64,000 bases of DNA from a virus (lineage: Duplodnaviria > Caudoviricetes): the IMG/VR virus record IMGVR_UViG_3300005937_000002, positions 17,985-81,984 of that record; one strand, 5' to 3'. Shown piece by piece: positions 38,683 to 44,394 of the stretch (position 1 is the stretch's first letter; each line of letters starts with the position of its first letter). The notes beneath the pieces were generated by a model that did no database searches, had not been told where the DNA came from, and was given only the letters and a program-made list of their open reading frames with translations. The position numbers and the translations under genes were made by a program.

Positions 38683-38755
38683 GACCTGATCATCAGGCGC
38701 AGGCGGTCAGCCCTGCACTACAGCGGCAGCGCAAAAGCGCCACCACCGTTTCACT
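38683..38755 (-). ncRNA. Hammerhead ribozyme-like element, copy 1
   Basis: GAAAC-stem III-GUA-GUGCAGG/CCUGCGC-CUGAUGA-UCAGGUC. Confidence 0.8.
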
Positions 38756-38756
38756 A

Positions 38757-38942
38757 TTAAGCGGCTTGGCCACCGCCTTCATCCTCAGTGAACCAGGCAA
38801 CAAACTCCAACAAATTCACTCTGCCGCTATCACTGATGTTGGCCATGATGAAGTCACGCTTCTCAGTCCAAGTCATGTCGTCGTCATCATCAACAAACTT
38901 TTCCAACAAGTCCGCTAAGCGTTCAACGTCATTGCTAGTCAT
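38757..38942 (-). CDS. Acidic cassette protein (61 aa)
   Basis: GAGGAGG RBS. Confidence 0.6.
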   Translation of the reverse strand: MTSNDVERLADLLEKFVDDDDDMTWTEKRDFIMANISDSGRVNLLEFVAWFTEDEGGGQAA

Positions 38943-38970
38943 TGCAGCCTCCTCATGTTTGCCGTCACAG

Positions 38971-39015
38971 TACGGCGGCGGCCGTCACCCGTCACCCGGC
39001 CGCCGCCGTTTCACT
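38971..39015 (-). ncRNA. Half hammerhead element (GAAAC-stem III-GUA only)
   Basis: 11-bp stem III; stem I and intact CUGAUGA absent. Confidence 0.65.
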
Positions 39016-39301
39016 AAGGCAGCTTGGTTAAGATATCATCGGCCACCGCCTCCGGGTACTTGGTGCGCACCCTGGCAATGATCTCGTCGCGCGTCCACAA
39101 GTTGTCCACCCATGGCCAGCCTTCATCATTGCGCAACTGGCAGGCGTTGTTGAACTCACGGCAAGTGGCCACGTCAACTTCACCTGTGAGCAACAAATCC
39201 CACAGCCGGTCACTCATGCGCCAGGCAATGCGCGCCTGCGCCTCCGGCGTTGTTGCGTCAGCCGTTATGAGGCCTATCAACACATCAGCATCGATCTTCA
39301 T
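39014..39301 (-). CDS. Cassette hypothetical protein
   Basis: 95 aa; TAGGTG RBS after copy 2. Confidence 0.6.
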   Translation of the reverse strand: MKIDADVLIGLITADATTPEAQARIAWRMSDRLWDLLLTGEVDVATCREFNNACQLRNDEGWPWVDNLWTRDEIIARVRTKYPEAVADDILTKLP

Positions 39302-39322
39302 TTTATCACCTACTGTTTGTTT

Positions 39323-39390
39323 GACCTGATCATCAGGCGCAGGCGGTCAACCCTGCACTACGGCGGCCGTCACCCGGCCACCGTTTCACT
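39323..39390 (-). ncRNA. Hammerhead ribozyme-like element, copy 2
   Basis: Full core; loop GUUGACC complementary to tail GGUCAA. Confidence 0.8.
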
Positions 39391-39708
39391 TCGCTTGACG
39401 GCTGTGATGCTCCAAACCAAGGCCATCGTCCAAATTATTACAAACACTGCAAAGCCTAGTTCAACAGCCAACAGCCATTCATCACTGACATTATTGATGT
39501 TGGCAAACTCAGCTTTGTGCCTGGCTATCATTATGATCAATAAGGCGGGTGGCGTGAAGCCAATGCCATTGAACACGCTGATAGCCAGCGTGTTGTGATG
39601 CTGCCTTAGCTTGGCCACCACTGTAGGGATGAAAGCCACTGCGATGAACACGGCAACGCCAGGCTTCAATGCGGCAACAATTATCAAGCATGTTATGTAA
39701 AGACCCAT
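39370..39708 (-). CDS. Membrane protein resembling superinfection immunity (T4 Imm-like) family
   Basis: F.PT.VA..R.H.N.LAI...N motif with several TM helices. Confidence 0.6.
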   Translation of the reverse strand: MGLYITCLIIVAALKPGVAVFIAVAFIPTVVAKLRQHHNTLAISVFNGIGFTPPALLIIMIARHKAEFANINNVSDEWLLAVELGFAVFVIIWTMALVWSITAVKRSETVAG

Positions 39709-39740
39709 GTCACACCTATTTGTTGTTGGAGTAGTTTGTT

Positions 39741-39853
39741 GTGGACGTCAGCGACTTTGAACGGTATGAGCAAATATAGCCAACCACGGCCGCAAGTCGC
39801 CTTTCGTTAACCCGACGCGCCCACTCACCGGGCGAGTATGCCCGTGGCGGCTA
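39741..39853 (-). ncRNA. Unassigned structured RNA motif, copy D
   Basis: Same core; GTGGGCG/CGTCCAC, GCGACTT/AAGTCGC, leader/loop pairing. Confidence 0.7.
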
Positions 39854-39857
39854 ACTA

Positions 39858-40154
39858 CTACATGCCATAAAGCGCGTACGGAAAAACTTCCCGCACCCAT
39901 TGTTTGAATGAAGGCGTGCCGTACCAGGCGCACAGCACCTTGTATTCTTCAGCCGTCATGCACTCACCGCCGTAATCATCTTGGCAAAGCATGCCGGCAT
40001 CGCACACCACTTCAACAACTTCACTGCGCCGCATGGTGGCAGCTTCACCACCATAGGCTTGCAGCACGTCACCGCCGATGCCTTGCCACACCCGCTGCAG
40101 CATGGGTGCCCAGCGGACTTTCTCTTCAGTCGTTATTTGAATACGCTTTTGCAT
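39858..40154 (-). CDS. Cassette hypothetical protein
   Basis: 98 aa; TAGGTG RBS after copy 3. Confidence 0.6.
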   Translation of the reverse strand: MQKRIQITTEEKVRWAPMLQRVWQGIGGDVLQAYGGEAATMRRSEVVEVVCDAGMLCQDDYGGECMTAEEYKVLCAWYGTPSFKQWVREVFPYALYGM

Positions 40155-40173
40155 TTCACACCTATTTGTTGTT

Positions 40174-42242: not shown

Positions 42243-42765
42243 AAACCTTCTTGATGCACTCAGGGCCGATGCCCCGCTCGATGCTGTCAGGGTGGGTCAG
42301 CTTGCGGCCACACCGGCCGCACTGGCCCTCGTGCCAGACTTCAACCTGGTCAACCGGCAAGTGGTCACGCACCAGGTGTTGCCACACCCAGGCAAATGCC
42401 TTGGCGCTTGGCGCATCACGTGCAATGTCACCCGGCCGCGGATTTTTGCGGCCTGCCCAGAACACGTCACGCTTGATCAGCCCCAGGTATTTGTAGCTGG
42501 CGGTGTTGTCAGGGCCGACCAACACCTTAACAAAAATCACGCTGCCGTCATCCGGCATGCCGAGCTCGTAGGTGAAGTGATTTTTTGTCGCCTTGCTTTT
42601 CAGCGTCACCGTGCCCTTGCCACCGTGAATGTACTGCCTTGCGGTCAGCGCATCAGTGAACTGCCGGCGATTGCTGACCGGCTTGACCGGCTTGTTTTCA
42701 GCCTCAAAGTCACCCTCGAGATTGTCGAAGTAGTCAGCCTGCGGCTTTGCATTACCATTCTGCAT
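42241..42765 (-). CDS. DUF6011-like zinc-finger protein
   Basis: C-terminal CGRCGRKLT.P.SI.RGIGPEC. Confidence 0.75.
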   Translation of the reverse strand: MQNGNAKPQADYFDNLEGDFEAENKPVKPVSNRRQFTDALTARQYIHGGKGTVTLKSKATKNHFTYELGMPDDGSVIFVKVLVGPDNTASYKYLGLIKRDVFWAGRKNPRPGDIARDAPSAKAFAWVWQHLVRDHLPVDQVEVWHEGQCGRCGRKLTHPDSIERGIGPECIKKV

Positions 42766-42787
42766 TTTAACACCTGTTTGTTTGTAT

Positions 42788-42850
42788 GACCTGATCATCA
42801 GGTGCAGGTGGTCAGCCCTGCACTACAGCGGCTTGCGCCGCTGTTTCACT
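42788..42850 (-). ncRNA. Hammerhead ribozyme-like element, copy 9
   Basis: Stem III AGCGGC-GCAA-GCCGCU (GNRA loop); full core. Confidence 0.82.
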
Positions 42851-43553
42851 TTTTGAAAGTCTGCTGCAGCTTGATTTGATCACCGGCCATGCGGCCAGCC
42901 GTGGTGCCAAGGCCAAGGTGCATTGTACGTGCACGTGCCTTCTTGACGCCCTTCAACAACTCATCGGCCGCGGCCAACGCCTGGTCAATCACGATCAGCG
43001 CCGTGCCGGTTGGCATCTTGCTACGCTCATGCGCTGTGATTTCAGCCACCCGCTGCCGGATGCGGCGGCAGCAGCCTTCCTTGAACGTCAGCCGGTACTC
43101 TTTTGACTGCGCCTTGGTAAAGCTGCCGAAGCGTACACGGTCAGCCCGCCTGGCTGCCTTGTACAAATCCTGCATTTGGTCGTTGACCCACTGCAGTGTT
43201 TCAATGGCCACCAGCACGTTGCTGGGCTTGCCGACAAACTGCACGCTGCCGTTATTGCCGGCCCACACCACGCGGCAGTTGAACATCTCAGCAATCGCCT
43301 GCGTCAGCATGCGCTGCCAGGTTTTATCAACTTCAAAGTTGTGCCAGTCGCCCTTGACGGCGGCTTGCTCAGTAACTTCTTCAACGTTGTCGATATTGTA
43401 CTGCAGCATCATTTGCTGCGCCTTGGCCATGGCCAAGGCCGCTTCAGCTTCGGTGGCACCAGCATCGCGCGCCAGCCGCAGCATCTTGCGGATTTTGTCA
43501 ACGATCTTGCCGTTGCCGAACGTGTTCACGTCAACCTTTGTTTCATCAGACAT
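42846..43553 (-). CDS. DUF2786-containing protein
   Basis: KIVDKIRKMLRLA...ATEAEA..A..KAQ.MM..YNI. Confidence 0.8.
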   Translation of the reverse strand: MSDETKVDVNTFGNGKIVDKIRKMLRLARDAGATEAEAALAMAKAQQMMLQYNIDNVEEVTEQAAVKGDWHNFEVDKTWQRMLTQAIAEMFNCRVVWAGNNGSVQFVGKPSNVLVAIETLQWVNDQMQDLYKAARRADRVRFGSFTKAQSKEYRLTFKEGCCRRIRQRVAEITAHERSKMPTGTALIVIDQALAAADELLKGVKKARARTMHLGLGTTAGRMAGDQIKLQQTFKK

Positions 43554-43577
43554 TTTAACACCTGTTGTTGTTTGTAT

Positions 43578-43645
43578 GACCTGATCATCAGGTGCAGGTG
43601 GTCAGCCCTGCACTACGGCGGCCGTCACCAAGCCACCGTTTCACT
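43578..43645 (-). ncRNA. Hammerhead ribozyme-like element, copy 10
   Basis: Stem III GGUGGC/GCCGCC with a U-G pair; full core. Confidence 0.8.
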
Positions 43646-43981
43646 TCACCAACGTGGCCGTGGCTCGCCAAAGCAATCAGCTTCATGGCAAGCCAAGGCG
43701 TATTCGTCTTCATCGCCCCAGCTATCAGAGCCATACCGTGGCTCAAGTTCAAACCAGCACCCAACGTCAGTGAAAGGCGTGCCTACGTTAATGTGACGCA
43801 AGATTGCCTTGGCCGTGCCGGCATTAGCGTAATTGTCATCGCCCCAGCGCCAACGCCGACCGTCACTGTGCTCAGCACAGATGTAAAAGATTTCAACAAA
43901 CACTTCGACAGGTCCGTCTTCAGTGTTACGTTGCGCAAAATAACCATCAACCGCTACGTTGATATTCAACATTTGCTTCAC
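43646..43981 (-). CDS. Cassette hypothetical protein
   Basis: 111 aa between copies 11 and 10. Confidence 0.6.
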   Translation of the reverse strand: MKQMLNINVAVDGYFAQRNTEDGPVEVFVEIFYICAEHSDGRRWRWGDDNYANAGTAKAILRHINVGTPFTDVGCWFELEPRYGSDSWGDEDEYALACHEADCFGEPRPRW

Positions 43982-43995
43982 CCTATGGGTTGTAT

Positions 43996-44064
43996 GACCT
44001 GATCATCAGGTGCAGGTGGTCAGCCCTGCACTACGGCGGTGGCCGCAGCCACCGCCGTTTCACT
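43996..44064 (-). ncRNA. Hammerhead ribozyme-like element, copy 11
   Basis: 9-bp stem III GGCGGUGGC/GCCACCGCC; full core. Confidence 0.82.
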
Positions 44065-44067
44065 CAC

Positions 44068-44304
44068 TCAGTTGAAGTCACGCCAGGCCAGATCGGCCCG
44101 CACGTCAAAGTCAAGGCCAAAGCAAACCTTGACGATCATGCGTACTCGCTCACGCTCACCGTCAATCACCAGCAAGCCCTTGCCCAGGTAGCGGCCAAAC
44201 AGCTTGCGCTGATCAGCAGCGTTCAACTTGCCGCGCCAGGTGCCAAGCACCGTGCCGGTGTGTTCACTCACAAACAAAGCCAGGTTGGCAGCGTAGTCAG
44301 TCAT
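44068..44304 (-). CDS. Cassette hypothetical protein
   Basis: 78 aa between copies 12 and 11. Confidence 0.6.
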   Translation of the reverse strand: MTDYAANLALFVSEHTGTVLGTWRGKLNAADQRKLFGRYLGKGLLVIDGERERVRMIVKVCFGLDFDVRADLAWRDFN

Positions 44305-44323
44305 GTCATTCACCATTGTTGTT

Positions 44324-44394
44324 GACCTGATCATCAGGTGCAGGTGGTCAGCCCTGCACTACAGCGGTGGCTTTGCAGCCACCACCGTTTCACT
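44324..44394 (-). ncRNA. Hammerhead ribozyme-like element, copy 12 (first in transcript)
   Basis: Full core; predicted cut between 44360 and 44359. Confidence 0.8.

Follow-up and report, generated by a model that had tools for sequence, protein, structure and literature searches.

Twelve probable type II hammerhead ribozymes in the gene junctions of an accessory operon from an uncultured soil phage

What is the role of a short element that is repeated in 12 of about 15 junctions of a single operon? This question is raised by an uncultured soil phage, represented by the complete 81,984-bp virus record IMGVR_UViG_3300005937_000002, which carries direct terminal repeats. The DNA analyzed here is a stretch of 64,000 nt from this record; the whole stretch is called the window, and all coordinates refer to positions in it. 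Twelve intact copies of the element, 62–74 nt long, lie on the minus strand between positions 38682 and 44394 (repeat family D1, 12 members). With good confidence, we propose that these repeats are type II hammerhead ribozymes belonging to a sub-lineage with a minimal stem II, and that they release single-gene mRNAs from one message. The hammerhead assignment had been made in an original prediction, and it has been strengthened by the present analysis: the full core occurs in 12 of 12 copies, the stems and the pseudoknot covary, and the core motif CUGANGA is retained even where the search does not force it.

All twelve copies are confined to one region of the complete genome. A 15-mer spanning the core and the tail has 12 exact occurrences, compared with 0.08 expected in shuffled sequences. 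Read from 5′ to 3′, every copy consists of A-G-U, GAAAC, a variable hairpin, GUA, stem I, CUGAUGA, UC, a single A, and a tail. This fixed order, together with the repeat family and the exact count of the 15-mer, confirms the twelve minus-strand elements first described. In hammerhead numbering, the parts correspond to 11.3–11.1, G12–A14, stem III, A17, stem I, C3–A9, 10.1–10.2, and the pseudoknot strand, which is the type II permutation. The core strand C3-U4-G5-A6-N7-G8-A9 is present as CUGAUGA in all 12 copies, and so are G12-A13-A14, the A15.1-U16.1 pair, and a non-G nucleotide at position 17, seen as GAAAC ... GUA. Stem I has 7 bp in every copy and closes an 8-nt loop. Stem III starts with the pairs A15.1-U16.1 and C15.2-G16.2; it pairs and varies freely, as had been claimed, and its length, counted from A15.1-U16.1, is 7–13 bp.

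The pairing pattern indicates which molecule is under selection. Within the array, six stem III pairs are changed on both sides, and 92% of the stem III cells of the alignment pair, compared with 27–48% when the partner strands are slid; none of 500 shuffles reached the observed value. Of the cells in the core helices, 234 are Watson-Crick and 16 are G-U; A-C does not occur. The opposite strand would hold 16 mismatches at these places; therefore, the selected molecule is the minus-strand transcript, which is sense for the flanking genes, and the wobbles indeed reflect RNA-level selection on that strand, as originally suggested. In all copies, the tail is complementary to 5–7 nt of loop I. Pseudoknot helices with the copy's own tail have a mean of 4.9 bp vs. 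2.9 bp for cross pairings. The loop I/3′-tail interaction noticed at the outset thus holds for the entire array, and it also covaries in the relatives described below.

In the direction of transcription, the first copy is hammerhead 1 (44323–44394), located in the 5′ leader before the gene 44304–44068; it scores 94.5 bits with a covariance model built from the twelve copies. Its predicted cleavage site, between 44360 and 44359, is the same as that derived earlier. Hammerhead 2 (43995–44064) would be cleaved at 44032/44031, and hammerhead 3 (43577–43645), in which the upstream stop codon UGA abuts A11.3, at 43614/43613. The upstream stop of hammerhead 4 (42787–42850; predicted site 42824/42823) is U11.1-G12-A13 itself. 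Downstream of hammerhead 5 (42171–42242; predicted site 42208/42207) come a hairpin of 21 bp and an orphan gene rich in GC, and hammerhead 6 (41551–41619; 41588/41587) is a duplicate of hammerhead 7 (41180–41248; 41217/41216) that includes the tail of the upstream gene. Further along lie hammerhead 8 (40705–40766), hammerhead 9 (40437–40498), and hammerhead 10 (40173–40241), the last with a 7-bp pseudoknot; their predicted sites are 40742/40741, 40474/40473, and 40210/40209, respectively. The open reading frame (ORF) upstream of hammerhead 11 (39322–39390; 39359/39358) ends inside the stem III loop, and hammerhead 12 occupies 38682–38755 (38719/38718). A thirteenth copy on the same strand, at 38971–39017, is a truncated relic that scores 19.2 bits with the model of the array (E 0.003). 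It keeps GAAAC, an 11-bp stem III, and GUA, and everything that follows in an intact copy, from stem I through CUGAUGA to the tail, is lost; after GUA come unrelated bases and then the strong GGAGG ribosome-binding site (RBS) of the gene 38942–38757. The break thus coincides with the bond predicted to be cleaved, or adjoins it.

Relatives of the element occur in other viral contigs. A loose core pattern, consisting of AGUGAAAC, GUH, and CUGAUGAUC with gaps, matched at least 114 viral contigs. Among the matches listed, 25 (22 unique) had both stems and 89 had none, which is a clean split, and these 89 of the 114 listed matches were rejected as chance. The covariance model, in which the pseudoknot is not included, scores the stem-bearing relatives at 24–72 bits and adds copies missed by the pattern, among them four-copy arrays in contigs L085 and L122, whose core differs only at N7 (C or A for U) and by a C15.2-to-U wobble. 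Nucleotide 17 in the relatives is A, C, or U. In an alignment of 38 sequences, compensatory changes were found in 7 of 7 pairs of stem I and in 9 of 11 pairs of stem III, and 97–99% of the cells of these two stems pair. The pseudoknot shows compensatory changes in 6 of 8 pairs, even though it is outside the model; at one position, for example, 13 cells have changed from A-U to G-C. Of all cells, 88.9% pair, compared with 32–41% for slid partners, and again none of 500 shuffles reached the observed value.

The core motif was also recovered by a scan of IMG/VR that contained no core sequence and used as its only anchor a single frequent sequence of loop I with the matching tail. It yielded 37 unique matches, 24 with stem I and 13 without it. 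An exact CUGANGA stands at the expected place in 22 of the 24 stem I-bearing matches (N7 is U in 19, C in 2, and A in 1); one of the other two is a one-base variant and one is a chance match. Among the matches without stem I, the motif occurs in 1 of 13. Stem II in this set takes the forms GAC/GUC, GAU/AUC, GGC/GCC (some with an extra U), or UC/AGU. As the same backbone carries several forms of stem II, the form found in this phage would represent a sub-lineage of ordinary type II hammerheads. The U-U form of stem II recurs in many viral contigs. When the stem I sequence of this phage was demanded in a scan of IMG/VR, no other record was returned. The palindrome ACCTGA/TCAGGT of the array is reduced in relatives to at most 4–5 bp, with a varying partner strand (UC-AGG, GAC-AGG, UCUAGCC, and others). 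A core that stays fixed while the partner half of the palindrome changes freely favors RNA over a DNA site; this comparison of core and palindrome had been proposed as a check of the original prediction, which has passed it, with CUGANGA kept and the palindrome not conserved.

Several of the related contigs carry further elements. At L085:2068-2135 and L085:3500-3545 lie a type II hammerhead of canonical form, whose stem II has 4 bp (GGUC/GACC) and which lacks an obvious pseudoknot, and a degenerate hammerhead-like stretch; together with the four-copy U-U array of this contig, they indicate that one operon can mix hammerhead forms. In second hammerheads of two other contigs (L024:3811-3882 and L072:10102-10173), UUGAUAA replaces CUGAUGA, which matches the C3-G8 to U3-A8 covariation described previously (PMC3088659); stem II in these two is of the canonical GAC/GUC type. 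In L144 and L174, GAUAAC is found where GAAAC is expected, which fits the U13a insertion variant (PMC3088659). One contig with a U-U hammerhead also contains a partial match to the transfer-messenger RNA family RF00023 (L052:7685-7751, 53 bits, above the cut-off).

Several observations weigh against the proposal that the twelve copies are cleaving hammerheads. At Rfam gathering thresholds, there is no match in the window. When reporting is based on E-values, the sole ribozyme family matched, over its full model, is Hammerhead_II (RF02276), and it matches six copies at 29–34 bits, below the cut-off of 37; hammerheads 6, 7, 8, 9, and 11 score 29.2, 31.2, 34.2 (E 0.00038), 30.3, and 30.4 bits, and the per-genome E-values for the six copies are 1e-6 to 2e-5. 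The search with Rfam hammerhead models proposed earlier was empty at the gathering score and gave these six matches below it. In its consensus architecture, RF02276 resembles the repeats, with a two-pair stem II, one spacer base, and a strand that pairs with loop I. Stem II in the array is invariant, with U10.1-U11.1 followed by C10.2-G11.2, so that none of the 12 copies has G10.1-C11.1, the best conserved pair after A15.1-U16.1; it is mainly this replacement of the expected pair by U-U that lowers the RF02276 score. The cut-off is reached by three relatives that share the AGU/UC form of stem II, with 43, 38.6, and 37 bits. Additionally, folding without pseudoknots gives stems III and I as expected, and it also gives a competing CUGA/UCAG hairpin, 6 bp long here, that would hide C3–A6. 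From GUA to the tail, the copies share 97% identity, compared with 48% for the interior of stem III, a conservation that exceeds what a ribozyme needs. Transcription is another weak point: a sigma-70 consensus scan of the 400-nt leader (44400–44800) detected no such promoter on the minus strand and so lends no support to the promoter placed at 44671 by the original prediction. Among the sequencing runs matched to the stretch, there was no RNA run.

Some of these features could be explained if the copies had a hammerhead fold and were very slow, conditional, or inactive. They might then serve as structured junction modules, acting as 3′ hairpin and 5′ pseudoknot insulators, as ribosome stand-by sites, or in translation coupling, or they might be ribozymes switched by the CUGA/UCAG hairpin or by a terminating ribosome. 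The U-U at 10.1/11.1 with a single Watson-Crick pair in stem II, the scores under the Rfam cut-off, and the presence of the competing hairpin in the minimum-free-energy fold of all copies tested would agree with this. The upstream stop codons overlap the 5′ strand of the ribozyme, so that GAAAC and one half of stem III would lie under a ribosome that terminates there, and slower phage variants have been suggested to be possibly regulated (PMC3088659). However, the catalytic nucleotides are retained in 12 of 12 copies and in the relatives, where only N7 varies, and without selection for catalysis such retention would be difficult to account for. Natural hammerhead variants are reported to include a rare form that starts with U10.1-U11.1, as well as stems II of 1–2 bp; two pairs are frequent, and a tested metagenome ribozyme with one pair cleaved at more than 1.2 per min in 0.5 mM Mg2+ owing to its pseudoknot, an interaction with loop I already described for type II hammerheads (PMC3088659). 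The same work found U-U to be the mispair that best supports activity at 10.1/11.1 (PMC3088659). As the U-U start and stems II of 1–2 bp are reported natural variants, self-cleavage of the present copies is plausible, and the reservation about the minimal stem II in the original prediction is answered as far as the occurrence of such forms goes, although the rate may be affected. Because the extension of the competing hairpin is not conserved in relatives, we do not regard it as a class-wide feature; an “off state” is conceivable, though not one selected for throughout the class. Taken together, these points make a slow, conditional, or inactive fold an unlikely account of the array.

A role at the level of DNA, with the inverted repeat ACCTGA-N3-TCAGGT as a protein-binding or recombination site, or with the repeats as homology handles for cassettes and the RNA fold as a secondary matter, would be in line with the high identity of the block from GUA to GGUC relative to stem III, with the clustering of the three polymorphic sites of this block along the array, with a 124-nt duplication at 98% identity beside a foreign gene of 70% GC, and with the existence of a truncated copy. 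Nevertheless, relatives lack all of the palindrome outside CUGA/UCAG, while their cores and pseudoknots are conserved or covary, and the central 4 bp of the palindrome follow from the fixed core and the UC-A-G tail. The 16:0 asymmetry between G-U and A-C cells denotes strand-specific selection on RNA, and recombination is expected of any repeat family and requires no dedicated function, which leaves a DNA site as a highly improbable explanation. Even less credence is given to the view that the repeats are merely hammerhead-like and serve as attenuators or as sites for a host or phage RNase, such as RNase III or E, in the manner of T7 early mRNA. Their position between early-type genes does recall the T7 RNase III sites, and stem III is a stable G+C-rich hairpin, but stem III with 7–13 bp and stem I with 7 bp fall short of the about 20 bp or more characteristic of RNase III substrates. 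The hairpins are followed by no U-tract, the sole terminator-like site being at the end of the operon, and a chance likeness cannot produce a full core with three covarying helices.

Hammerhead ribozymes cut after A17 and leave a cyclic phosphate on the upstream product and a 5′-OH on the downstream product. For the reading that we prefer, active type II hammerheads, catalysis is inferred from this family chemistry and from the published activity of similar variants. The ribozymes would be transcribed within one minus-strand message of about 6.4 kb that contains 14 small accessory genes, and the pseudoknot of 5–7 bp between loop I and the 3′ tail would hold the active fold. Self-cleavage after A17 of GUA would then release single-gene mRNAs. 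The upstream mRNA would end with its stop codon and the stem III hairpin, carrying a 2′,3′-cyclic phosphate, and the downstream mRNA would begin with a 5′-OH, stem I, and the pseudoknot, still intact; next would come a spacer rich in A and C and then the RBS. Such new RNA ends would be expected to stabilize the mRNAs. An RtcB-type RNA ligase was not found in the phage genome.

The placement of the copies within the operon agrees with this scheme. The 14 small genes parted by the ribozymes lie on the same strand (minus) at 38398–44304, so that 12 copies in one orientation, 14 same-strand genes, and a terminator-like site at the end form a clustered-hammerhead arrangement. The stop codon of the preceding ORF (UAA-G, UAG, or U11.1-G12-A13) shares positions 11.3 to 13 with the ribozyme in the majority of copies and relatives, and a start codon, with its RBS ahead of it, comes about 20 nt past the tail. 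The junction template proposed originally, running from the stop codon through the ribozyme to the RBS and start, therefore holds for most copies, with four departures. The first copy is preceded by a non-coding leader and not by a gene; between the copy at 42242 and the next RBS lie the hairpin and the foreign GC-rich gene; downstream of the copy at 38755, the RBS is GGAGG and the start codon is TTG. Finally, the ORF 39708–39370 reads 21 nt into hammerhead 11 (39370–39390) and has its stop in the stem III loop, so that each round of termination requires the ribosome to open one half of stem III. This ORF encodes a membrane protein resembling superinfection-immunity proteins (minus strand). 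Two other genes on this strand have family matches, one encoding a DUF2786/DUF7168 protein (43553–42846) and the other a DUF6011 protein (42765–42241); the other eleven genes are without a Pfam family at threshold, four of them being either matched to PHROGs or outside the scan. An intrinsic-terminator-like hairpin on the minus strand at 38222–38253, with 12 bp, of which 10 are G-C, and a U-rich tail, is likely to mark the end of the transcription unit, and a single transcript would cover all genes of the unit.

A second structured element of about 115 nt was observed at hammerhead-free junctions of the operon (39853–39741 and 38400–38284), with further copies at 35910–35794 and 35297–35196, all on the minus strand. 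It is located right after the stop codon and before an A/C-rich spacer and RBS, and its long-range helices show some compensatory changes among the four copies. A comparison with Rfam gave no match at E up to 1. Different classes of self-cleaving ribozymes are known to cluster, and for this reason the element may be considered a candidate ribozyme.

The array also bears traces of recombination. The stretches 41529–41652 and 41158–41281 form the 124-nt duplication mentioned above (98%, repeat family D2), which contains the last 10 codons and the stop of the gene 41531–41247, the ribozyme, the spacer, and the RBS. It adjoins the orphan gene of 70% GC (116 or 102 aa) and the hairpin, at 41695–42165. 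The hairpin itself (42080–42165) has 21 bp with one mismatch and promoter-like hexamers on both strands. In the protein collection, the GC-rich 116-aa ORF matched only the copy of its own genome and no relatives, and the gene looks like a moron-type insertion. Together with the truncated copy and with the three polymorphic sites of the conserved block, which cluster by position along the array, these features demonstrate recombination among the repeats, of the kind that any repeats undergo, and they do not demonstrate a dedicated exchange mechanism. The suggestion that the repeat serves as a homology handle for gene cassettes has only circumstantial support, from the duplication and from the identity of the block relative to stem III. 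One could go further and imagine a junction module that is both coupled to translation and prone to recombination: the stop-embedded form with its weak stem II would let the terminating ribosome block folding and time the cutting, and the conserved block would be the crossover site for single-gene cassettes, with stem III travelling along as the 3′ hairpin of the cassette to which it belongs. To this combined scheme we assign a low probability.

The phage is a tailed double-stranded DNA phage that encodes its own DNA polymerase, helicase, primase, and large terminase, and its head protein also matches head-maturation protease families. A search of sequencing runs located the stretch in two rhizosphere metagenome DNA runs, of which one is probably where the record came from; contigs from both runs are identical to the phage sequence and break at the repeats. 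Comparison of the region with 50,697 phage records (blastn, distant mode) gave no match, and no related loci were found when they were sought with the DUF2786 protein. The relatives of its terminase are distant, with 60% identity on a 4.5-kb contig and 31–34% for the others, and the best match in a cultured phage is that of Pseudomonas phage PAJU2 (56%). The covariance model of the twelve copies had no match in the records of these terminase relatives. Because of this, and because the relatives are distant, the conservation described above does not amount to a true comparison of homologous phages.

In phage T7, the early transcript is cut by host RNase III at long double-stranded intergenic stems, giving stable mRNAs of one gene each with a hairpin at the 3′ end. 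The likeness to the present operon is a functional analogy only, as here the RNA would cut itself, leaving 5′-OH and cyclic-phosphate ends. The array is a clean substrate for asking whether early messages can be processed by ribozymes instead of by an RNase III-type enzyme, whether the U-U variant of stem II is slow or regulated, and how a 5′-OH pseudoknot end and a 3′ hairpin end affect mRNA stability and translation. The roles of bacterial self-cleaving ribozymes were still called largely elusive in a 2019 review (PMC6765202). The Hammerhead_II cut-off of Rfam misses this sub-lineage, and such arrays are consequently under-annotated in viral metagenomes. We found no later open papers on large phage hammerhead arrays. 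Even so, the novelty implied by the original prediction was too high, since gene-flanking hammerhead clusters in phages, together with the proposal that they cut polycistronic transcripts, had already appeared in print in 2011 (PMC3088659).

The closest known systems are the type II hammerheads of RF02276, which are alike in the core, in the circular permutation with stems I and III capped and stem II open, in the pseudoknot, and in the phage or prophage context (PMC3088659). They also share the very short stem II with one spacer base; in contrast, the U10.1-U11.1 start, a rare natural form among those described (PMC3088659), is the only form in the 12 copies found here. Multiple hammerheads often flank single genes or short gene blocks in prophages, long phage transcripts have been proposed to be processed into gene-length mRNAs, and three tandem arrangements were cleaved in vitro, one of them also in E. 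coli (PMC3088659). In the prophage clusters of Agrobacterium tumefaciens, Azorhizobium caulinodans, and Clostridium scindens, ribozymes of the same orientation bracket varied small genes, as they do here (PMC3088659). The arrangements tested there were tandem or triple, whereas this operon has 12 intact copies and a relic among 14 genes in a complete lytic-type genome, and most of its copies overlap the upstream stop codon and lie at a constant distance from the next RBS. The array is thus a large and clean example of a layout known in phages since 2011, and not a new principle.

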